64,000 nucleotides of DNA from Ignavibacteriota bacterium (GTDB lineage: Bacteria > Bacteroidota > Ignavibacteria > Palsa-1295), in contig CAVZOL010000001.1 of assembly GCA_963776895.1 (NCBI GenBank), positions 25,321 through 89,320 on the forward strand, in the 5' to 3' direction. Shown here piece after piece: positions 9,547 through 58,969 of the stretch (position 1 is the stretch's first letter; every line of letters starts with the position of its first letter). The notes under the pieces were generated by a model that saw nothing but the letters and a program-made list of their open reading frames with translations, was not told the DNA's origin and made no database searches. Both the position numbers and the translations under genes were made by a program.

Positions 9547-9699
9547 AGTAAGCAGCCCGTAACGAAAAACCATGCCGAACAATAAGTTGTTGAATTTTGC
9601 GTTTTTAGGCCGCTTTCTCATAGCTAATGTCGCATTATGAGAAATGCGGTTTGTATTTGACGCAAAATCGAACAGTCTTTTCAATTTCGTACACTCATA

Positions 9700-9757
9700 G
9701 TTGTGTAAACAACTATATATAGCTGTGTAAACAACTATATATGGTTGTGTAAACAAC
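9700..9757. repeat. Three tandem 22-bp repeats carrying the near-palindromic 14-mer GTTGTGTAAACAAC
   Basis: GTTGTGTAAACAACTATATATA / GCTGTGTAAACAACTATATATG / GTTGTGTAAACAAC. The 14-mers start at 9700, 9722 and 9744, a spacing of two helical turns. Confidence 0.85.
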
Positions 9758-17253: not shown

Positions 17254-17991
17254 CTATGAGCGGCGACCCTCGATGATGACGACAAATTCGCCTTTGAATG
17301 GATTCGTTTGAAACAAATCACGTACTGCTAAGAGTGTCCCGCGGGCAACACGTTCCTTAGGCATTGAAATATCCATAGCCACGGCGGCGTGCCGGTCGGT
17401 GCCGAACCCGTGGACAAGATCGTCCAGCAATTGCGAGAGGCGGTATGGAGCTTCGAGCAAAACGATGGTTTCTTCACGCGCGGCAAGCTTTCGCGCTGCA
17501 TTTTTTCGCTCGGTTTTCTCACGCGGCAGCATTCCTGCGAAATAAAAACGATCGGACCGAAACCCGCTCACCACTAACGCCGCAAGTATGCTCGAAGCAC
17601 CAGGCACGGGCGATACTTCTATCCCCTCCTCGATGGCTTGCCGCACTAAGCGCTGGCCGGGATCGGCAATGAGCGGAGTTCCGGCATCCGAAATCAGTGC
17701 AAGATTTTTACCGGAACGCAGGAGGGTTATCGCTTCAGAGGTGACATCGGCTTCCGTGTGTTCATTAAGTGGTATTAAGGGCTTTTCTAACCACCCCCCA
17801 GCAGCATCGTCGGCGATGCTTCCCTCCTTGAAAAGGAGGGGGAGTTTATGCAAAAGGGCGCGCGCGGGTTTTAGATCTTCGCAAAGAATGGCATCGGCAT
17901 TTTTCAGCGCCTCAATGGCACGAAGGGTAATATCACCGCTATTCCCGATGGGAACGGAAACGATCTTGAGGCAGCCCGGCGAATGATCCAT
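17254..17991 (-). CDS. rsmI: 16S rRNA (cytidine1402-2'-O)-methyltransferase
   Basis: PIGNSGDITLRAIEAL, SDAGTPLIADPG and LLEAPYR motifs of the RsmI/tetrapyrrole-methylase fold. It contains the palindromic repeat insert at 17790..17847. Confidence 0.88.
   Translation of the reverse strand: MDHSPGCLKIVSVPIGNSGDITLRAIEALKNADAILCEDLKPARALLHKLPLLFKEGSIADDAAGGWLEKPLIPLNEHTEADVTSEAITLLRSGKNLALISDAGTPLIADPGQRLVRQAIEEGIEVSPVPGASSILAALVVSGFRSDRFYFAGMLPREKTERKNAARKLAAREETIVLLEAPYRLSQLLDDLVHGFGTDRHAAVAMDISMPKERVARGTLLAVRDLFQTNPFKGEFVVIIEGRRS
17790..17847. repeat. Palindromic repeat family copy 1 (inside rsmI, in-frame)
   Basis: ACCACCCCCCAGC-AGCATCGTCGGCGATGCT-TCCCTCCTT-GAAA-AAGGAGGGGGAGTTT. Translated on the minus strand as KLPLLFKEGSIADDAAGGW(L). 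Confidence 0.8.
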
Positions 17992-25831: not shown

Positions 25832-27655
25832 CTACTCTTGCTCTGATCCCGCGAGAGGCATGGCCTGCCTCAATTCCATTGCACAATCGTGAGCTGCCGT
25901 GCGTGTTTGAGGATCCGGATGTAAAAGATACTCCTTCACTTCCTTTCTTAGATCATCTGCTGAGCCGGCAGATGTGGCTATTGCTCCTATTTTTGTTTTC
26001 ATGATCCGAACCAGACCATCGAACGACTTGAGATGTCGGATATTTTTATCAAGCTCCCCAGCCGCAGACGAAGAACCAGCGACAGGCCTCATATCTTCAG
26101 GAACTATTGAAATCGCATCCTTTGGACCCATTCCCGATTGTGATGCCAGAATCGCATCCGAACTTTCCGTCTCATTCCTCAATTGGCTTTCCGATACTAC
26201 TTCACGCAGCAATTCGGATCGTTGTTGCGGATCGGTCTGCAGCATGGCTTCTGCTAACGTGTTCAGTCTTACATTCCTCGAAGCTACTTCTGCTTTCTGC
26301 GCAGCAACTTCCGCGTGCAGCGAATCGAGTTCCGCCTGTTCCTTGCTTGCAATTTCACTGATATCGTTCGCACTTAATCCGATCGCTACATTGATAAGGC
26401 TAACTCCCTGACCCTCGGAAGCGGACCACGCTCTGCCCAGAACCGTTGTAAATTGTTTCGGGGTAATACTGCCAGGTGCAAGGGCCATGCCCACACCATC
26501 GTTCCGTCCGGAAGGGACAATAAAATCACCCTTATGTACGATGCCCCGCACCTTCACGGGTACCTGGCCAAGGAATGCGACTTTGCTATACTCGGACTCT
26601 TCGCCTTTCGCAGGAACGTTTCCCAACACGATCGGCGCCAAAGAAATAGCAAACACACTTTGGGCACCGGTAGTCGTCTTTGCAATTAGTCCATCGGTCA
26701 TTCCTACAATATCACCGGGATACAAATGTTCGTCCGCATCGGCGTGTTTCAGGTATTCTGCATAATCTCCGGCCGACGAAGTGTAGGCAACTCCTAAGCT
26801 GGAGGTTTTCGAAGCGATTTCAGCGGCCCAATTCGCGAGATCGTCAGCATCGGCAATAGCCTTCGCGGCATTCCCAGCAGAAACAGCTGGATCGTCACTT
26901 GCCGCGGCCTCTTCGACATCTTCGGCGGTTTCTTTCAGCCCGATAACGAGTTCTGTAGCCTCGCTCAGAACATAGAACGGATCATTTCCCAGATCCGTCA
27001 TATCTTGTCCTTGAATCGAACCGCGAGGGTTGCCAGCTCCATCGATAAAATCAATAAAGTGCGTACCGCTGTTAAGCCCACCCCCCGAAGCAGAGCAGTT
27101 TACAGTAAGCCCGGGGGTTCCTGCGGCCGGAGGAGCATCGATCACGAGCGGTTCCGACGATGTAACCGTACCACTGGCATCGCTTATGTGGGAATCGCCG
27201 ATGGCCGTGTCACCCACTTTCCATAGGGGAATCGTATTCAGCGTTCCGGTGCCATTGACCAGCCCAAGCTGGCCCGAGGCGGCATAATCCCAGGCTCCCG
27301 ATGGGCCTCCGGTATTGCCATCTGCTGTGATGCTGTTCTGGTTCGGCGGGATCCAATACAAGAGCTGAGGAACAACAGAACCACCCGATGGCCCCGAATA
27401 AACAAACCCCGCCTGGGCGTTACTCAATGGAGGCAGTGAGGGGATCAAGGTGAGGGGCAGAAACGGTGGAGTCGTGGTAGCCCATTGATTCCATTCCAAA
27501 GACCCGGAAATGGGGGTACGGTAGATCATCGTATGACCATGGGAATCATCAAGAATGAGCGCACCGGCACCGATTGCGCGTACTTGGCTCTTTGCCGAAC
27601 CAATCCAGGCAGTATAAACCACCAATGAGAAAAATGCAAGTAGAATGCGTTTCAT
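25832..27655 (-). CDS. Secreted tail-fibre/appendage-like protein, paralogue 1
   Basis: Likely start MKRILLAFFSLVVYTAWIGSAKSQ (signal peptide). The N-terminal domain is shared with 27666..29504 and 31158..33311. The block YTSSAGDYAEYL..PGDIVG..FLGQVPVKVRGIVHKGDFIV resembles phage appendage C-terminal autoproteolytic (peptidase G2-like) domains. A coiled coil and a ~110-aa C-terminal module follow. Confidence 0.7.
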   Translation of the reverse strand: MKRILLAFFSLVVYTAWIGSAKSQVRAIGAGALILDDSHGHTMIYRTPISGSLEWNQWATTTPPFLPLTLIPSLPPLSNAQAGFVYSGPSGGSVVPQLLYWIPPNQNSITADGNTGGPSGAWDYAASGQLGLVNGTGTLNTIPLWKVGDTAIGDSHISDASGTVTSSEPLVIDAPPAAGTPGLTVNCSASGGGLNSGTHFIDFIDGAGNPRGSIQGQDMTDLGNDPFYVLSEATELVIGLKETAEDVEEAAASDDPAVSAGNAAKAIADADDLANWAAEIASKTSSLGVAYTSSAGDYAEYLKHADADEHLYPGDIVGMTDGLIAKTTTGAQSVFAISLAPIVLGNVPAKGEESEYSKVAFLGQVPVKVRGIVHKGDFIVPSGRNDGVGMALAPGSITPKQFTTVLGRAWSASEGQGVSLINVAIGLSANDISEIASKEQAELDSLHAEVAAQKAEVASRNVRLNTLAEAMLQTDPQQRSELLREVVSESQLRNETESSDAILASQSGMGPKDAISIVPEDMRPVAGSSSAAGELDKNIRHLKSFDGLVRIMKTKIGAIATSAGSADDLRKEVKEYLLHPDPQTRTAAHDCAMELRQAMPLAGSEQE

Positions 27656-27665
27656 AAAAGTACTT

Positions 27666-29504
27666 TTATTGTTTAATTGAAAAAATGTTGAACAACCGGT
27701 CGATCGGCTCACCGGAACTTTCCATTTCATTTCCCGATTGCGTTCCTGATACTACTTCATGGAGCAACGCTACTCGTTGTTGCGGGTCGGTTTGCAGCAT
27801 GGCTTGCTCTAACCTGTCTTGCCACACGTTTTGTGAAGCCACTTCTGCCTTCTGCGCAACCACTTCCGCGTGCAGCGAGTCGAGTTCCGCCTGCTCATTA
27901 CTTGCAATTTCACTAATATCGTTCGCACTTAATCCGACCGCTACCTTTATAAGGTTAACTCCTTGACCCTCGGAAGCGGACCACGCCCTGCCCAGAACCG
28001 TTGTAAATTGTTTCGGGGTAATACTGCCGGGTGCAAGGGCCATGCCCACACCATCGTTCCGTCCGGAAGCGACAATAAAATCACCCTTATGTACGATGCC
28101 CCGCACCTTCACGGGTACCTGACCAAGGAATGCGACTTTGCTATACTCGGACTCTTCGCCTTTCGCGGGAACGTTTCCCAACACGATCGGCGCCAAGGAG
28201 ATAGAGAATACACTTTGCGCACCGGCGGTCGTCTTCGAAATTAGTCCATCGGTCATTCCTACGACATCGCCAGGAAAGAGATGTTCATTACTATCGGAGC
28301 GCATCAGGTATTCCGCATAATCTCCAGCCGACGAAGTGTAAGCAACTCCTAAGCTACCGCTTAGCGAAGTGATTTGAGCTCCCCAATTCACGATACCGTC
28401 ACCATCGGCAGCAGCCTTCGCGACATTCCCAGCAGAAACGGCATAATCGTCCTCTGCCATGGCTTCTTCGGCAGCGCCCAAAACCTCTTCGGCAACGCCC
28501 GCAGCATCTTCGGCAACGCCCGCAGCTATTTCTGCAATGCCCAGACCTACATCGATGGCCCCCTCGGCCGCGGTAATGGGGTCCACGAGGAGAACATCTC
28601 CGATACCCTCTTCTATACCGCCATCGGTTTCCTCGACGGTGGCCTCGGCTTCATCGGCGACACCCTCGGCCTCATCGGCAACGGCCTCGGCAGTCTCGGC
28701 GTCGCCCTCGGTCTCGGCCGCGGCCGCTTCGACATCTTCGGCGGCTTGTTTCGCCACGCTAACGGCTTTTGAAGCCTCATCCAGAACATAGAAGGGATCA
28801 TTGTCGAGATCAGTCTGATCCTGTCCTTGAATCGACCCACGCGTGTTGCCGGCACCATCGATAAAGTCAATAAAGTGCGTACCGCTATTAAGGTCAGTCG
28901 AAGCCGTGCAATTTACGGTAAGCCCGGGCGTTCCTGGGGCTGGCGGAGCATCGATCACGATCGGTTCCGACGATGTAACCGTCCCGCTGGCATCGCTTAT
29001 ATGGGAATCGCCAATGTCGGTGTCGCCCACTTTCCATAGGGGAATCGTGTTCAGCGTTCCGGTGCCGTTCACCAGCCCGAGCTGGCCCGAGGCGGCATAA
29101 TCCCAGGCTCCCGATGGGCCTCCGGTATTGCCATCTGCAGTGATGCTATTCTGGTTCGCAGGGATCCAATACGAGAGTTGAGGTACAACAGAACCACCCG
29201 GTGGTCCTGCATAAACGAACCCTGCCTGGGCGTTATTCGATGGAGGAAGCGAGGGAATCAAGGTCAGTGGCATAAACGGTGGAGTCGTGGTACCCCACTG
29301 AGTCCATTCCAAAGACCCTGCAATTGGGGTACGGTAGATCATGGTATGACCTACACCATCATCGAGAATGAGTGCACCGGCGCCGATCGCACGAGGTGTT
29401 TGTGCATACAGTTTCGACGATCCAAATAATGAGAAACTGCTTAGAAACAGAACGACAAAAGAAATACGTCGCATCGAACCTCCGGAATAGATGAAAAGGG
29501 ACAA
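27666..29504 (-). CDS. Secreted tail-fibre/appendage-like protein, paralogue 2 (C-terminally truncated, acidic repeat insert)
   Basis: Signal peptide ...SFSLFGSSKLYAQ. There are ~300-nt blocks at ~97% nucleotide identity to paralogue 1. It has an extra Ala/Glu/Gly/Val-rich insert and lacks the final module of paralogues 1 and 3. Confidence 0.7.
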   Translation of the reverse strand: MSLFIYSGGSMRRISFVVLFLSSFSLFGSSKLYAQTPRAIGAGALILDDGVGHTMIYRTPIAGSLEWTQWGTTTPPFMPLTLIPSLPPSNNAQAGFVYAGPPGGSVVPQLSYWIPANQNSITADGNTGGPSGAWDYAASGQLGLVNGTGTLNTIPLWKVGDTDIGDSHISDASGTVTSSEPIVIDAPPAPGTPGLTVNCTASTDLNSGTHFIDFIDGAGNTRGSIQGQDQTDLDNDPFYVLDEASKAVSVAKQAAEDVEAAAAETEGDAETAEAVADEAEGVADEAEATVEETDGGIEEGIGDVLLVDPITAAEGAIDVGLGIAEIAAGVAEDAAGVAEEVLGAAEEAMAEDDYAVSAGNVAKAAADGDGIVNWGAQITSLSGSLGVAYTSSAGDYAEYLMRSDSNEHLFPGDVVGMTDGLISKTTAGAQSVFSISLAPIVLGNVPAKGEESEYSKVAFLGQVPVKVRGIVHKGDFIVASGRNDGVGMALAPGSITPKQFTTVLGRAWSASEGQGVNLIKVAVGLSANDISEIASNEQAELDSLHAEVVAQKAEVASQNVWQDRLEQAMLQTDPQQRVALLHEVVSGTQSGNEMESSGEPIDRLFNIFSIKQ

Positions 29505-33619: not shown

Positions 33620-34607
33620 TTATGACAACGGGTTGCTCTGTAAAAACGTCTCTTCGCCTTCATCTAAGCGGGTTAGCTCGCTCTTCAGATATTCGAATGC
33701 TTCCTTGGGTGTGTCGGAGAAGTGGATAAGATTCGAGATCGCTTCGCGCGATCATGCCGTAGTATTCGAGCTTATCGAAATCAATGATCTCATCCCAATA
33801 ACTTTTACCATAAATAACGACCGGCATTTTCTTTCGAATTTTTCCCGTCTGGATGAGTGTGAGGCATTCAAAAAGTTCGTCAATAGTTCCAAATCCTCCG
33901 GGAAACACCACAAGCGCCTTGCTGAGGTACGCAAACCAGAATTTGCGCATAAAAAAGTAATGGAACTCAAAATTCAGTTCATCGGTGATAAAGCTGTTCG
34001 GCATTTGCTCGAATGGGAGCGAAATGTTAAAGCCTATAGATTTTCCACCGGCGAGCGTAGCGCCTTTATTCGCAGCTTCCATGATCCCCGGACCTCCGCC
34101 GGAACAGATCACATACCGCTGCTTGAACGAATGCGTTTTTATGGTAGCGACGTTCACGTAAGGAATTTGCTCCTTGACTTGTGCGGCAGCGACCATTCCT
34201 TTTGTCAACTGTGCTTTTTCATACGTCTGCGCGGCCTCCGTGATGGACCAATCCGTGATCATACGCGCAAGCTCGACCGCTTCTTCGTAGTAACGCGAAA
34301 GTTCCTTATGCCGCGTGGCGCGCCGAACGGCTTCCGTCAGTTCCGCTTCCACTTCGGGCGTGCAGGAGTTCGTTTGGAGCGCAAGCGCGCGAGCGTTTTC
34401 GAGCTGATGCAGCGCAGCGCTAACTTCTTCCGGCGATTGAATGCGCGCAGAACCGAAGAACACGATGGTATCTTTCACACGCGCATGTGCGAGTCGCGTT
34501 CTCGGCTCAATATACTCCGCCAAAAGGCGAATGACCCGCGCCTCCGGGCTGGTGAGAAAATCTTCGTTCAAATAGGCCTTTTCGGCACGTTGTTTTACTG
34601 CTGACAT
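33620..34607 (-). pseudogene. LOG-family (TIGR00730-type) nucleotide phosphoribohydrolase-like protein, frame shifted near 33729-33734
   Basis: GGGPGIMEAANKGA and FPGGFGTIDELFE motifs. After ...ARSDLE the expected end LIHFSDTPKEAFEYLKSELTRLDEGEETFLQSNPLS* reads in another frame and stops at 33620. Confidence 0.82.
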
Positions 34608-34612
34608 GTGAA

Positions 34613-34854
34613 AATGCTAAAGTGCTGAATGCTAAAGTGCTGAATGCTAAAGTGCTGAATGCTAAAGTGCTGAATGCTAAAGTGCTGAATGCTAAAGTGC
34701 TGAATGCTAAAGTGCTGAATGCTAAAGTGCTGAATGCTAAAGTGCTGAATGCTAAAGTGCTGAATGCTAAAGTGCTGAATGCTAAAGTGCTGAATGCTAA
34801 AGTGATGAATGCTAAAGTGCTGAATGCTAAAGTGCTGAGTGCTTATGTAATGCT
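34613..34854. repeat. Tandem array of a 15-bp unit (TGCTAAAGTGCTGAA), ~15 copies plus a degenerate one
   Basis: Read directly from the sequence. Copies are perfect except one G->A variant (~34805) and the last two units. The array starts 6 nt upstream of the LOG start codon. Confidence 0.95.
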
Positions 34855-35972: not shown

Positions 35973-36588
35973 ATCGTGACGATAAATAAGTCCCCGGCCA
36001 ATCCTGCCACTGAGCCACCATCCCCGCTTTCACGGGATTCATAATAACATACCGAATAATTCGTTCCAGAGAACCGCGCCGCACGACATGGTCGTAGCTC
36101 TCATATTGCCAAAAATGTTGCCCAATGTGGCCGAGGAGTTTATTACAATTGCGGGCAGTTGCGCCCTTGAGCAGCCTCATGATTTCGAAGAGCTTGGCCT
36201 CACCCACGACATCTATGACAAGATGAATATGATTCGGCATGATACAAAAGGCATGAATGAATATAAGTCCTCGCGCTTCCAGCTCCATTAGTTTTTCGCG
36301 CACGATTCCGAGAATGGCGCGCCGCTGGAGATAATCGACCCCGCCATGAAGCATGTCAAGCGATTCATCGTAGGAATTAAAAAACTGACCCTCCCCTACA
36401 CTCCCACGAAGCGACTTCAACCTCGCGATCTCGATGGGAGAAAGTGAACCCGCAAGCCGCGTCGTCACAAAATATGGCGCGTCGTTCGGTAAATAATGCG
36501 GGAGCTTTCGACGGTAATCGTTGCTTCCGGGACGTTTTAACATTGTGCATAGAACAATTTCGACCAACTAAAGTTGGTCGCTACACCC
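35924..36588 (-). mobile_element. REPtron-like unit: RayT (REP-associated tyrosine transposase) gene flanked by inverted REP hairpins
   Basis: Left: GGGTGTAGCGCCCAACTTTAGTTGGGCGAAAT (35924-35955). Right, reverse complement: GGGTGTAGCGACCAACTTTAGTTGGTCGAAAT (36557-36588). Identity is 30/32, and each contains a 9-bp hairpin. Confidence 0.75.
35941..36567 (-). CDS. IS200/IS605-like Y1 transposase of the RayT (TnpA-REP) type
   Basis: 208 aa: KLPHYLPNDAPYFVTTRL, HAFCIMPNHIHLVIDV (HUH), WQYESYDHVV (catalytic Tyr region), IRYVIMNPVKAGMV. Confidence 0.8.
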   Translation of the reverse strand: MVEIVLCTMLKRPGSNDYRRKLPHYLPNDAPYFVTTRLAGSLSPIEIARLKSLRGSVGEGQFFNSYDESLDMLHGGVDYLQRRAILGIVREKLMELEARGLIFIHAFCIMPNHIHLVIDVVGEAKLFEIMRLLKGATARNCNKLLGHIGQHFWQYESYDHVVRRGSLERIIRYVIMNPVKAGMVAQWQDWPGTYLSSRYDAAKIISPN

Positions 36589-37753
36589 GCGCCGTTATCT
36601 CCAACATTCGCTCCAGCGCAACTCGCGCCCATTTTTTCTCAGAATCCGAAACGACGATCTGATTTTTCACCACGCAAATTTTCAAATTTTCTAAAATATC
36701 CAACAGCGATTCCGGTGAAATGCGGTACATCGTTGCGCACTCACAAGCATACGGCGCAAGCGTGGTAATAAACTGTTCTGGATGGTCTTTCTTCAGCCTA
36801 TTCACCAGATGATGCTCCGTTCCGATCGCCCATTTACTTCCCGGCGATGCTTCATCGACCGTCTTCATGATGTACGATGTGGAACCAACTTTATCTGCTT
36901 GCCGCACAACCTCGAAATTACACTCCGGATGCACCATTACTTGTATGCCGGGATACAGCGCGCGCATGATATTTGGATGCGATGGCTGAAAATGCTGATG
37001 CACGGAGCAATGTCCGCGCCACAGTAAAATTTTTGCACTCTTTAATTCATCCTCGGAAAGACCACCCCCCGGCCCCCTCCTATTCCGCTCCGCTGCATAG
37101 GAGGGGGAGTTCGTTTGGTCGTATAGTTTTATCTCTTCAAGGGGAATATTCATCTGATAGAACGCGGTATTGCGGCCAAGATGCTGATCGGGAAAGAAAA
37201 ATACTTTTTCAAATCCCTGATCGAACGCCCATTGAAAAATTGCGCGATTATTAGAGCTGGTAGATACTGCGCCGCCATGCTCACCGCAAAATGCTTTTAT
37301 TGCGGCACTTGAATTCATGTAGGTTATCGGGCACACTTTTTGGGTATCGATATACTCCCCTATTTCATCCCACGCATCTTGCACTTGCTCAAGACGTGCC
37401 ATATCGCTCATAGAACAGCCGGCTTTGAGATCGGGAAGGATTACTTTCTGGTGCGGCGCGCTCAACACATCGGCCGTTTCTGCCATGAAATGAACGCCGC
37501 AGAAAATGATAAATTCCCTATCGTGAAGTTCCGATGCAAAGCGTGAAAGTTCGAAGGAATCTCCCATCCGGTCGGCAAATTGGATAATATCGTCGCGCTG
37601 ATAGTGGTGGCCGAGGATGACGATCCGATCGCGCAGTTCTTCTTTCAGCGCGTGAATGCGGCGAACGACTTCTTCCGAAGTTGTTTCGGCCACGAGCGCA
37701 TCCTCGACCGTCCCGGTCTCAGAAATTACATCAAGTTCCAGAATATCAGACAT
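36581..37753 (-). CDS. nadA: Quinolinate synthase
   Basis: GHHYQRDDIIQFAD, FCGVHFMAETADVL, FFPDQHLGRNTA, WRGHCSVH, HPECNFEV. It carries the palindromic repeat insert at 37061..37111. Confidence 0.92.
   Translation of the reverse strand: MSDILELDVISETGTVEDALVAETTSEEVVRRIHALKEELRDRIVILGHHYQRDDIIQFADRMGDSFELSRFASELHDREFIIFCGVHFMAETADVLSAPHQKVILPDLKAGCSMSDMARLEQVQDAWDEIGEYIDTQKVCPITYMNSSAAIKAFCGEHGGAVSTSSNNRAIFQWAFDQGFEKVFFFPDQHLGRNTAFYQMNIPLEEIKLYDQTNSPSYAAERNRRGPGGGLSEDELKSAKILLWRGHCSVHQHFQPSHPNIMRALYPGIQVMVHPECNFEVVRQADKVGSTSYIMKTVDEASPGSKWAIGTEHHLVNRLKKDHPEQFITTLAPYACECATMYRISPESLLDILENLKICVVKNQIVVSDSEKKWARVALERMLEITARV
37061..37111. repeat. Palindromic repeat family copy 2 (inside nadA, in-frame, exactly 17 codons)
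   Basis: ACCACCCCCCGG-CCCCCTCCTAT-TCCGCTCCGCTGC-ATAGGAGGGGG-AGTT. Translated on the minus strand as NSPSYAAERNRRGPGGG. Confidence 0.85.
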
Positions 37754-40178: not shown

Positions 40179-41207
40179 ATGCTGAATTACATCTGGCTTG
40201 GCCTGATCGCCATCGCTATCGTCGTAGCCGTTGGGCGCGACGTGAGTGAAGAAACGAGCGACCGCTTCCGAAATAACGAGCCGATCGCGCTCCACGTTGC
40301 GCCCGGCGCGATGAAAATAGCGGGACCAAATCACTTTACCGGCACAGCTTTTCTCACCAAAGCAGAAATTGCGCGTTTCTACGGCGCGGATGAAGCGCAG
40401 CCGATCAAAGGCGATACGGTATTTTTTTCTGCCGATCTCGTCGAGTCACCAACGAATGCGAAATCAGGCGCGCTTACACTCACACTTCCAGCCAATGCGC
40501 CGCAAGTGATGGTCGATGCCGCTACTGCTGGCGGCGATGCATCAAAAATTATCGGGCAAACTACCATTTCTCTGAATCTTCAAAACACCACCGTCCAGCC
40601 CCCTGCTCTTATAGAGGAGGGGGAGTTAGACTTTACCCCACCATCCGTTCACTTTCGTATTCTCGCAAAAGTTGGGAACGATGGGATTTTGAAGATTGCA
40701 GATACCGCTGTTCAACTTGCCATCGGCCTCATCGGCATTATGGCGCTGTGGCTGGGAGTTATGAAGATCGCGGAGGCAGCGGGACTTGTGCTGCTACTGG
40801 CGAGAATTGTCAGACCGATCATGGTGCGCGTGTTTCCAGACGTCCCGCCCGACCACCCCGCTATGGGAGCGATGGTAATGAATATGGCGGCGAATTTCCT
40901 CGGCCTTTCTAACGCCGCCACGCCGCTTGGACTCAAAGCAATGGAGGAATTAAACAAGCTGAATCCTGTCGCGGGAACTGCTACGAACGCGATGTGCATG
41001 TTCCTCACGATCAATACGACGGCGCTTACGCTTGTGCCCGCGACCGTTATTGCGATTCGGCTTACGCTTGGCTCAACCAATCCAACGGATATTATCATGC
41101 CAACGTTTTTGGCAACGTTTGTGAGTCTTATTCTTGGCATTTTATTTACGCGATTCATTCAGAGATTTTTTCCTATTCAAAGGACAGAAGGGACGCAAGG
41201 GACTTAA
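40179..41207 (+). CDS. Nucleoside-recognition (Gate) domain membrane protein, SpmA-like
   Basis: 342 aa. The hydrophobic C-terminal half resembles the SpmA family, and it pairs with a downstream SpmB-like gene. It contains the palindromic repeat insert at 40587..40627. Confidence 0.6.
   Translation: MLNYIWLGLIAIAIVVAVGRDVSEETSDRFRNNEPIALHVAPGAMKIAGPNHFTGTAFLTKAEIARFYGADEAQPIKGDTVFFSADLVESPTNAKSGALTLTLPANAPQVMVDAATAGGDASKIIGQTTISLNLQNTTVQPPALIEEGELDFTPPSVHFRILAKVGNDGILKIADTAVQLAIGLIGIMALWLGVMKIAEAAGLVLLLARIVRPIMVRVFPDVPPDHPAMGAMVMNMAANFLGLSNAATPLGLKAMEELNKLNPVAGTATNAMCMFLTINTTALTLVPATVIAIRLTLGSTNPTDIIMPTFLATFVSLILGILFTRFIQRFFPIQRTEGTQGT
40587..40627. repeat. Palindromic repeat family copy 3 (inside SpmA-like gene, read on the + strand)
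   Basis: ACCACCGTCCAG-CCCCTGCTC-TTATA-GAGGAGGGG-GAGTT, translated as TTVQPPALIEEGEL. A shorter variant with one stem mismatch. Confidence 0.7.
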
Positions 41208-44132: not shown

Positions 44133-44297
44133 TGTCATCCTGAGCGGAGTTCTTCTCGACGCGCATCGCCCACGATGCTTGGAGAGAAGAACGGAGTCGA
44201 AGGATCTCGTGAAGTATGGCTGTCAGTTAAGCCGCATGAGATTCTTCGACTACGCAAAACTCCGCTGTCGCTCCGTTTTGCTCCGCTCAGAATGACA
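44133..44297. repeat. MITE-like element, family with TGTCATCCTGAGCGG...CCGCTCAGAATGACA termini (copy A)
   Basis: 165 bp; terminal inverted repeats match 14/15; nested internal hairpins. A related 125-bp copy lies at 58845..58969. Confidence 0.85.
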
Positions 44298-53570: not shown

Positions 53571-53618
53571 ACCATCCCCCAGCCCCCTCCTATTCGCAAG
53601 CTCATAGGAGGGGGAGTT
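53571..53618. repeat. Palindromic repeat family copy 4 (intergenic, abutting the prfB stop codon)
   Basis: ACCATCCCCCAG-CCCCCTCCTAT-TCGCAAGCTC-ATAGGAGGGGG-AGTT. The last T is the first base (plus-strand sense) of the prfB TAA complement. Confidence 0.85.
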
Positions 53619-54770
53619 TATAGTTCCTCTTCCGCTGCATCGCTGACTTTCAGCTTGCCGCCTTCGTATAGCAAATAGGCCTTCATGAAATCGGTGATGT
53701 CGCCATCCATGACGGCCTGCACATCGGTTTTTCCGACTTTGGTACGGTGATCTTTGACCATCGTGTAGGGCTGGAAAACATAGGAGCGAATCTGCGAACC
53801 CCATGTGATCTTTTTCTTCGAGCCTTCGATGGCCGTGAGGCGTGCTTCTTCGATTTCCCGATCGATGGCAACAATGCGGGATTTCAGCATTTTCATAGCC
53901 CGCTCGCCATTTTGGAATTGCGAGCGTTCTTCCTGACATGCAGCGATTACGGTGTGCTGTCCACCGATGGCATCGGTGTATTTATAGGTGAGGCGAACTG
54001 CCGTTTCTACTTTGTTGACGTTCTGCCCGCCTTTTCCGCCGGAACGATATGTATCGCGCTGCAACAGAGCGGGATTGAGAACAATATCGGCATTTTCCTC
54101 TTCGATCACGGGGTAGGCATAGACGCTTGCAAAGCTGGTATGCCGACGCGCATTGGCATCATACGGAGAAATACGTACAAGACGATGCACGCCGTTTTCG
54201 GTTTTCAGATAGCCGAAAGCGTTTTCGCCATTGAATTCGAGCGTTGCGGATTTTATTCCGGCACTTTCGCCGGCAAGCTCATCGAGCATCCGGACTTTGT
54301 AGCCATTGCGTTCGCCCCAGCGAGTGTACATGCGTTCGAGCATTTCGGCCCAGTCGCAGGCTTCGGTGCCACCCTGCCCGGCATTGATGGTCAGGATAGC
54401 ATCTTTATGATCGTCCGGCTTGCTTAGCATGACGGCCACTTCCTGCGCGGTTAGCTCATCCGTGAGGCGCGTGAATTCCTCCGCAACTTGCGCTGTAAGC
54501 GATTCATCCTCGCGGGCAATTTCGAAGAGTTCTTCGGCGTCGTCTAAACGAGAGCGGAGTTTTTGGAAGTCATCTCGCTCTTTTTTCAGGCGGGAAAGCT
54601 CCTGCATTCTCTGCTGAGCTTTTTTCGGGTCGTTCCAAAATTCGGGCTGACCGGATTCGTCTTCGAGGGTATTTATTCGGCGTTCTTTTAGAGCGAGGTC
54701 AAAGAGAGTCGCCAAGCTCTGCGAGGCGTGCCCGCAGATCGGCGATTTGGGTGGTGGTAATTTCGCTCAT
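53618..54770 (-). CDS. prfB: Peptide chain release factor 2 (requires programmed +1 frameshift)
   Basis: Frame 0 is MSEITTTQIADLRARLAELGDSL-TGA (54770..54699). The +1 frame continues DLALKERRINTLE... through SGGKGGQNVNKVETAVR (GGQ motif) to 53618. Confidence 0.93.
54698..54704 (-). promoter_or_regulatory. RF2 autoregulatory +1 frameshift site CTT TGA C
   Basis: The canonical heptamer is read directly on the minus strand. The in-frame TGA occupies 54701..54699. Confidence 0.9.
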
Positions 54771-58844: not shown

Positions 58845-58969
58845 TGTCATCCCGAACGGAGTCGAAGTATCTCGTGAGGTTTGGCTCGATGGTGACGACC
58901 GGAGATTCTTCGACTTCGCAAAACGGAGTCCGCTGAGGCGGACTCCGTTTTGCTTCGCTCAGAATGACA
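58845..58969. repeat. MITE-like element, same family as 44133..44297 (copy B)
   Basis: TGTCATCCCGAACGGAGTCGAAGTATCTCGTGAGG...GAGATTCTTCGAC...CCGTTTTGCTTCGCTCAGAATGACA. Confidence 0.85.

Follow-up and report, generated by a model that had tools for sequence, protein, structure and literature searches.

What is the GC-rich hairpin sequence that interrupts rsmI in an Ignavibacteriota bacterium, how is it tolerated inside a conserved gene, and what spreads it? The gene lies in a 64,000-nt stretch of contig CAVZOL010000001.1; this whole stretch is hereafter the window, and coordinates are counted from its first letter. Overall, we suggest that the rsmI sequence is probably a solo copy of a short hairpin repeat that resides in coding loops and is kept and spread together with a small nuclease of the DUF559 family.

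The window holds four copies of the element, all on the plus strand (Table 1) and all of the build ACCAYCCCCCRG-CCCCCTCCT-loop-AGGAGGGGG-AGTT. An earlier note on this DNA had placed all four correctly except for the end of the rsmI copy, which is 57 nt long and stops at 17846 rather than 17847. The full reading is ACCACCCCCCAGC-AGCATCGTCGGCGATGCT-TCCCTCCTT-GAA-AAGGAGGGGGAGTT for the rsmI copy and ACCACCCCCCGGCCCCCTCCTAT-TCCGCTCCGCTGC-ATAGGAGGGGGAGTT for the nadA copy. We found four matches to GGAGGGGGAGTT in the window (0.14 expected) and seven to CCCCCTCCTAT with at most one mismatch (0.50 expected), and no shuffle reached either count. Single-strand folding, as DNA or RNA, gave each copy a stem of 8-11 bp (DNA z-scores -2.3 to -3.7), not the 9-13 bp proposed earlier. 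Three copies lie in frame inside conserved open reading frames (ORFs), namely rsmI, nadA and the gene of a Gate-domain protein, and the RsmI peptide around the insert, ...CEDLKPARALLH-KLPLLFKEGSIADDAAGGW-LEKPLIPLNEHTE, translates exactly as had been quoted. The final T of the fourth copy is also the final base of the prfB stop codon TAA. Copies occur about once per 16 kb in the window and about once per 26 kb when the extra copies in element-selected loci are counted. A search of the entire window against Rfam at the gathering score returned no match, and an exact look-up of the window RsmI protein found no identical record. The names carried by the closest homologues put the organism among Candidatus Kapabacteria.

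The element measures 39-57 nt. It has two C-rich boxes, box 1 (ACCACCCCCCRG) and box 2 (CCCCCTCCT), then a variable loop, after which come the G-rich box 3 (AGGAGGGGG), the pairing partner of box 2, and the tail AGTT. Conservation of the element begins and ends exactly at ACCA... and ...AGTT, and the two ends form an imperfect inverted pair, ACCACCCCCC / AACTCCCCC, matching at 8 of 12 positions. Read from the sequence, the arms are free of stop codons in all six frames. Among 36 exact-pattern copies from Kapabacteria/Ignavibacteriota-type genomes, five frames are used inside genes, and the peptides differ by frame and orientation (TTPQPPP..EEGE, PPPSPLL.., NSPS..RRGLGGG, LTPPP..EGAGGW and KLPLL..EGAGGW). 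As identical nucleotides serve in at least five reading frames, the conserved unit is the DNA and not the peptide, as the earlier note had argued from copies translated in different frames and orientations; the differing frames rule out peptide-level conservation as an explanation. A G-quadruplex on the G-rich strand was also considered and rejected, since that strand has only two runs of three or more G and no canonical motif. The arms hold a perfect AGGAGG/CCUCCU pair, which resembles the Shine-Dalgarno and anti-Shine-Dalgarno sequences.

Most of the same 36 copies are intragenic: 26 are within long ORFs that extend for 30 codons or more on either side, six at an ORF end and four outside any long ORF. 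All in-gene copies are open in the host frame, with no stop codon. Host genes confirmed by Pfam include UbiE, a XerC-like integrase, MgsA/RarA, Mfd, a SpoU methylase, TsaD, LysA and a Geobacteraceae Eco57I methylase, and in several of them the element lies within the domain itself; in the Geobacteraceae genome an inverted pair of elements is in frame within the Eco57I methylase domain. As a separate observation, the XerC-like integrase of the Kapabacteria metagenome-assembled genome (MAG) palsa_1295 also contains a tandem peptide repeat, SQHSALSTQHSALSTQHSAL. Distant paralogues among GlcF-like proteins (L008, L043) carry copies at equivalent positions in different frames, and so do secretion-tail domains (L004, L016, L027), which fits selection for tolerant loops. 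In an AlphaFold model of the window RsmI (mean predicted local distance difference test score, pLDDT, 80.9) the insert falls between the helix at 40-53 and the strand at 72-74, and residues 57-65 of the insert score below 50, so on the model a floppy surface loop is expected.

We set filled alleles against empty ones among relatives. When 36 RsmI proteins are aligned, most orthologues, including some 80-88% identical to the window protein, read LLHELKI-EKPLLPL with no insert. At this site the window protein has 19 extra residues, P0001 and P0003 a 13-residue version, P0005 a decayed version, and P0017 and P0022 longer and different inserts. The stretch is an insertion, as had been suspected: most orthologues are empty, and a subset of close relatives has the element or a variant of it. 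An empty rsmI allele (L058) reads GAACTC-CAAATC-GAAAAG. The filled allele of the closest full-length relative (L059, encoding P0001) contains a plain 39-nt element without the 18-nt mini-hairpin, and the window allele corresponds to this element plus 18 nt that form a separate small hairpin. In the gene of P0017 (L060) a forward copy is nested within the remnants of a reverse copy.

The other two in-gene copies of the window give a similar picture. Approximately 100 of 120 NadA homologues read YDQTQ-P-L-GGL and lack the insert. The 51-nt type is found in the window and in six others, and a 39-nt type occupies the same loop with different junctions in P0157 and in palsa_1295 (L038); in all, at least three different insert versions occur there. 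By these sequences the NadA loop is a hot spot for several insert types. Other, longer inserts (e.g. SASVVAGSPSLPREGAGTAPLQLVS) are present in the same loop of P0134 and P0225. The Gate-protein copy is intact in palsa_1295 (L010), where it reads TTPQPPPLAEEGEL, and the site is empty in L061. The net gain of filled over empty alleles is 30 nt in rsmI, 36 nt in nadA and 27 nt in the Gate gene for elements of 39, 51 and 41 nt, respectively; it falls 9-15 nt short of the element length, and a few target bases resemble the element ends. Across 86 copies, no direct repeat of 2-7 nt that would represent a target-site duplication rose above the permutation level.

The element is not confined to the relatives of the window. 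We scanned 185,579 species-representative genomes with a pattern carrying about 23 bases of information, as the earlier note had advised, and obtained 57 matching stretches against approximately 0.5 expected by chance (rough arithmetic, not program output). Fifty-six are true copies with full arms and loop types of their own; the remaining one (L009, Bipolaricaulota) forms no hairpin and is a chance match. The earlier note had named two outcomes that would speak against a repeat family, an orthologous peptide lacking the palindrome and a copy number no higher than chance, and both were looked for and neither was found. The matches fall in Kapabacteria/Ignavibacteriota/'Bacteroidetes' MAGs (32, of which 16 in palsa_1295), in Geobacter, Geobacteraceae, Desulfuromonadaceae and Pelobacter (15), in Novosphingobium (3, one of them on the complete chromosome of a cultured strain), in Lunatimonas/Lunatibacter (2), and once each in Thiotrichaceae, Zixibacteria, an alphaproteobacterium and a candidate-phyla-radiation genome. 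The same arms are common to several phyla. Copies in complete genomes of cultured strains rule out an assembly artefact. The annotated megaplasmid of Novosphingobium capsulatum has eight element places, and the one copy viewed in annotated context is intergenic, directly after the treA stop codon. We found no copies in IMG/VR contigs (exact pattern) or in GenBank phages (blastn); there is no sign of a phage vector, though one copy lies in a phage portal-like ORF (L056).

A candidate partner gene came from a six-copy locus (L028), where the C-terminus of a 130-aa DUF559 (PF04480) ORF is encoded by a copy of the element. DUF559 genes, encoding proteins of about 120 aa, are present in 5 of 57 element-selected loci (Pfam E = 1e-26 to 1e-35), and four of the five are bracketed by the main element, in Thiotrichaceae, an alphaproteobacterium, Geobacteraceae and palsa_1295. 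The copies usually form the array [forward][reverse]-gene-[forward][reverse] and turn their box-1 ends toward the gene. Intact 124-aa relatives exist in Kapabacteria, and both loci retrieved (L143, L144) are bracketed likewise; L143 comes from the same sample as L059. Around the fifth gene, the second DUF559 paralogue of palsa_1295, the bracketing element is another one with the identical build, ACCTCTCCCC-TAA-CCCCTCTCCTT-GGTA-AAGGAGAGGGG. This second C-box family (ACCTCTCCCC..CCCCTCTCCTT-GGTA-AAGGAGAGGGG) also has solo in-frame copies in genes of palsa_1295 (PGI, FAD oxidase). The model of the Kapabacteria DUF559 protein (pLDDT 89.7) has PDB 3HRL as its nearest fold, followed by I-Bth0305I and then Vsr, and the invariant residues of the family include D and E-x-D-G-x-x-H, among others. 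No transposase gene was seen beside any copy in the loci inspected, whole genomes being outside the search. Neither the cross-phylum spread nor the DUF559 partner gene figured in the earlier note. The literature open to search, which excludes most subscription-journal papers, yielded nothing that links DUF559, COG2852 or PF04480 to repeats.

We then asked how general the association is, using 80 metagenomic DUF559 loci chosen by protein similarity alone and counting perfect hairpins of at least 8 bp with one all-pyrimidine arm. Within 300 nt of the gene there are 155 such hairpins in 44.3 kb (3.5 per kb), versus 21 in 123.9 kb (0.17 per kb) for all DNA farther than 300 nt away. A stricter recount gives 144 near the gene (44.3 kb, 3.25 per kb); far from it there are 10 outside ORFs (12.6 kb, 0.79 per kb) and 8 inside ORFs (111.2 kb, 0.07 per kb). 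Hairpins are hence enriched about 4 to 20 times next to DUF559. At least one hairpin is present in 63 of the 80 loci, and hairpins on both sides in 38. Arm sequences vary by locus (CCCCCTCC, CCCTCTCCC, CCCTCCCC, CCCCCTCTT, TCCCCCCTT and others), yet the two flanks of one gene agree in 31 of 47 loci, versus 22% agreement between different loci. Loci that share an arm word also have more similar DUF559 proteins (0 of 2000 permutations). Annotated isolates of Deinococcus, Azospirillum and Picosynechococcus have their own arm versions around DUF559. On the Sphingomonas parapaucimobilis plasmid NZ_CP155753.1 (L145, 112589-112999) the DUF559 gene is located between sufB and sufC of the Fe-S assembly operon and has CCCCTCCCC hairpins on both flanks.

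These observations suggest the following model. The rsmI sequence would be a solo copy of a DNA repeat that forms hairpins, is non-autonomous and has a high copy number. Where copies land in a tolerant surface loop with the frame kept, they would persist as 9-19 additional residues, with proline, glycine and charged ones prominent among them, and their in-frame survival in rsmI, nadA and the Gate gene would be possible because the arms are stop-free in six frames. The family would be kept and spread together with a small DUF559 endonuclease of the Vsr / I-Bth0305I fold, different DUF559 lineages carrying different cognate arm sequences. The DUF559 protein may recognise and cut the element and so drive its copying, in which case the solo in-gene copies would be products of its activity. 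A break-and-repair or copy-in route may be favoured over classical DDE transposition because there is no target-site duplication, the target is partly replaced and the junctions have microhomology; these junction features suggest a better fit to such a route than to DDE without identifying it. By the same logic that tied the REP-associated tyrosine transposases (RAYTs) to repetitive extragenic palindromic (REP) sequences and their inverted doublets (REPINs), we infer that the element is acted upon by DUF559, which would drive its spread or maintain it.

Several points weigh against this model. We infer movement of the element from genomes that have diverged. Aligning RsmI orthologues, a check that the earlier note had proposed, located the insertion, but at 15-20% divergence between the filled and empty genomes the exact insertion boundaries are ambiguous. 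Adjacency alone is no proof that DUF559 is the mobilising enzyme, and we know of no stand-alone PD-(D/E)xK enzyme that transposes DNA. The 64-kb window has no DUF559 gene, and the DUF559 copy in palsa_1295 has a premature stop. By the strict criterion, 17 of the 80 DUF559 loci have no such hairpin, and the flank geometry is variable among loci. The covariation of arms and proteins is modest (protein distance 0.517 versus 0.546) and may partly reflect host phylogeny or GC content. The main rival explanation makes use of the same adjacency: DUF559 might be a free-standing homing-endonuclease gene that inserts between dispersed repeats, which would serve as landing pads and spread otherwise, by template switching at hairpins, microhomology-mediated copying or some transposase. 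A fold nearest to that of a homing endonuclease, the position of the gene in alternating arrays with an R copy on one side and an F copy on the other, and target sites that resemble the element ends and are partly replaced would all agree with it. However, it leaves the covariation of arms and DUF559 unexplained unless the nuclease also constrains the repeat, and it offers no source for the cross-phylum identity of the arms; we regard it as unlikely, although it deserves to be taken seriously.

Another possibility is that the element is an ordinary REP or a MITE (miniature inverted-repeat transposable element) moved by a RAYT, an IS200-IS605 Y1 transposase or a DDE transposase encoded elsewhere, with the DUF559 adjacency incidental. 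The hairpin, the conserved single-stranded 5' box, the lack of a target-site duplication and the REP/REPIN-like inverted doublets in Geobacteraceae speak for it, and the element is, as REPs are, an imperfect 20-40-nt palindrome at high copy number. However, the GTAG or CGTC tetranucleotide that marks REP ends (PMC3733652) is absent, the ends being ACCA... / ...AGTT. The copies are not extragenic in the Kapabacteria-type group, and the gene flanked in the loci inspected is DUF559 (PF04480) rather than a Y1 (RAYT) gene. Of the MITE hallmarks, no target-site duplication emerges across the 86 copies; the element ends match each other at 8/12, and the only bracketed gene found is DUF559, not a known transposase. 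DUF559 adjacency in at least six lineages and in 63/80 unbiased loci would be hard to call incidental, nothing in the loci inspected points to a RAYT-driven REP, and we consider this explanation improbable. A host-beneficial RNA or DNA signal, such as an mRNA stabiliser, a terminator-like hairpin, a Shine-Dalgarno-mimic ribosome pause or a nucleoid-protein site, would account for copies directly after stop codons (prfB in the window, treA in N. capsulatum) and for the perfect pairing of CCUCCU in box 2 with AGGAGG in box 3, and a class of the same build was called putative global-regulator sites (PMC2700814). It is very improbable, given the presence of the element in both orientations in coding loops of unrelated genes, its variation among close relatives and the lack of an Rfam match. 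In particular, an intrinsic terminator role for the prfB copy was rejected, as no U-tract follows the hairpin on the prfB transcript. Ribosomes are known to bypass the 50-nt gap of T4 gene 60 and the GC-cluster 'byp' elements of yeast mitochondria. The inserts here, being short GC-rich hairpins in coding sequence, resemble such elements and might likewise be skipped by the ribosome or removed from the RNA. Bypass is unnecessary because each in-gene copy keeps a single stop-free frame: the gaps contain neither a frame break nor stops, and even decayed copies (Gate) are read through. We give this last alternative hardly any credence.

For a solo hairpin repeat partnered with DUF559, the known systems offer partial parallels. 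Rickettsia palindromic elements (RPEs), which are reported from Rickettsia, are approximately 100-150 bp long and have one frame that encodes a conserved peptide. Our element is 39-57 nt long and uses at least five frames with no single peptide; its arms are the same in several phyla, and a nuclease is its candidate partner. RPEs were described as in-frame palindromes in unrelated housekeeping genes (Ogata et al. 2000, via PMC10969869), and, as far as that account goes, our element shares with them in-frame residence in unrelated protein-coding genes with host function presumably kept, a peptide added to tolerant loops, and presence that varies among relatives. The comparison with Rickettsia drawn in the earlier note is therefore apt as a functional analogy and does not extend to family membership, given the length, the many frames and the several phyla. 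In the REP/REPIN-RAYT systems a low-copy RAYT gene is flanked by cognate, lineage-specific repeats (PMC2817692, PMC3116915, PMC3337134). The short hairpin, conserved 5' box, inverted doublets, missing target-site duplication and many solo copies are shared with REP/REPIN, as is the enzyme gene flanked by its own repeats, which differ between enzyme lineages. In contrast, the flanked gene here encodes a Vsr-like PD-(D/E)xK nuclease of the DUF559 family instead of a Y1 HUH transposase, and many copies lie within genes and are translated. The same arms also recur in different phyla, whereas for REPIN-RAYT systems mostly vertical inheritance is described. The element thus falls outside the defining features of both the RPE and the REP families.

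The enzyme has parallels of its own. I-Bth0305I and other EDxHD homing endonucleases reside in group I introns or inteins, and Vsr acts in mismatch repair (PMC3239194; PDB 3R3P, 1CW0). The DUF559 partner has the fold of these enzymes and also their conserved D...E-x-D-G-x-x-H residues; unlike theirs, its predicted nuclease gene is free-standing and bracketed by hairpin repeats. Among published sequences, the nearest that we came upon are the 'class 4 putative global regulator binding sites' of Geobacter metallireducens, multicopy and similar in many genomes (Aklujkar et al. 2009, PMC2700814, Fig. S6). Their build is the same (CCCTCACCC, optionally a small hairpin, CCCTCTCCC, a loop and GGGAGAGGG), but their arm sequence is different, they were described as intergenic only, and they were read as protein-binding sites and tied to no gene or coding insertion. 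This same-build class apart, the literature within reach of our search, from which most subscription-journal papers are missing, contains no description of the element. Our element would fit a DUF559-associated C-box class, which we propose: its hairpin joins a pyrimidine arm to a purine arm through a loop, a second C-rich box lies on one side, and the same arms bracket DUF559 in the same or a closely related genome. A wider reading, which we hold tentatively and rate somewhat short of an even chance, is that C-box hairpin repeats may form a pan-bacterial superfamily whose cognate nucleases are the DUF559 proteins, a very widespread family to which no role is assigned. There would then be a second, independent partnership of the REPIN-RAYT kind, based on a Vsr / homing-endonuclease fold, with repeats shared horizontally between phyla and, in some lineages, rewriting surface loops of essential proteins in frame on a large scale.

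If true, the partnership would give an origin for many lineage-specific loop insertions in conserved bacterial proteins; this would bear on annotation, on alignments and phylogeny, and on where new protein sequence comes from. Heavy in-frame colonisation by palindromes would then not be peculiar to Rickettsia. DUF559, a very common domain of unknown function, would gain a testable one, in a repeat-enzyme partnership built on a nuclease fold not known to move DNA alone; with a 120-aa enzyme and a hairpin substrate of about 40 nt, its mechanism would be open to direct biochemistry. The 'multicopy sequences similar in many genomes' that the Geobacter genome papers mention would be explained as well.

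Table 1. Positions of the element, its host genes and other features (window coordinates unless a locus is named)
Feature	Position	Strand	Remarks
Element copy in rsmI	17790-17846	+	57 nt, composite; minus-strand reading is K49-W67 of RsmI
rsmI copy, box 1 ACCACCCCCCAG	17790-17801
rsmI copy, nested mini-hairpin AGCATCG-TCGG-CGATGCT	17803-17820		18 nt, between box 1 and box 2; encodes SIADDA in rsmI, ASPTMR in other genes
rsmI copy, box 2 TCCCTCCTT	17821-17829		Degenerate left arm
rsmI copy, loop GAA	17830-17832
rsmI copy, box 3 and tail AAGGAGGGGGAGTT	17833-17846
Element copy in nadA	37061-37111	+	51-nt type, perfect 11-bp arms; minus strand encodes NSPSYAAERNRRGPGGG
Element copy in Gate-domain protein gene	40587-40627	+	41-nt type, decayed, 4 arm mismatches; encodes TTVQPPALIEEGEL
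Element copy 3' of prfB	53571-53618	+	48 nt, perfect 11-bp arms, outside genes
rsmI, host gene	17254-17991	-	245 aa, 16S rRNA C1402 2'-O-methyltransferase; Pfam TP_methylase E = 4e-34; homologues named RsmI
nadA, host gene	36581-37753	-	Quinolinate synthase, 390 aa; Pfam NadA E = 1e-93
Gate / nucleoside-recognition membrane protein, host gene	40179-41207	+	342 aa; Pfam Gate E = 1.6e-10
prfB (release factor 2), neighbour of fourth copy	53618-54715	-	Pfam PCRF and RF-1
DUF559 bracketed by the same arm family	L050, L143, L144; L028, L030, L020		First three in Kapabacteria
Second C-box family	L007 5040-5760; L004 5121-5145; L029 2230-2254; L043 4793-4817
Mini-hairpin family	17803-17820, 44163-44178; L017, L035, L042, L043, L057, L059
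Dispersed repeat	44133-44297, 58845-58969		Intergenic
15-bp tandem repeat	34613-34843		Between two ORFs
22-bp tandem repeat	9697-9757
Adjacent similar ORFs	25832-27730, 27666-29504	-	632 and 612 aa
86-nt repeated segment	29686-29771, 33643-33728		4 kb apart

The mini-hairpin nested in the rsmI copy belongs to a separate family of 16-18 nt, GCATCG-N4-CGATGC, whose members are nested in element copies (L017, L043, L057) or stand alone. Judging from the sequences, it is the likely explanation of extra ASPTM... inserts near the RsmI C-terminus in P0007 and P0015. The window holds other repeats as well. The dispersed repeat, present in two copies with terminal inverted repeats TGTCATCC(T/C)GAxCGGAG ... 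CGCTCAGAATGACA, looks like a MITE. The 15-bp unit AATGCTAAAGTGCTG is repeated 15.4 times at 98% identity, and nearly three tandem copies of the partly palindromic 22-bp unit ATAGTTGTGTAAACAACTATAT form an array resembling an operator or iteron. The two adjacent minus-strand ORFs are 83-91% identical at the nucleotide level over some stretches, which suggests a tandem gene duplication, and the 86-nt segment occurs twice at 90% identity. Finally, the long ORF of prfB opens with a TTG start at 54715 and is without the N-terminal part normally present; immediately upstream of it there may be the programmed +1 frameshift that is typical of release factor 2.

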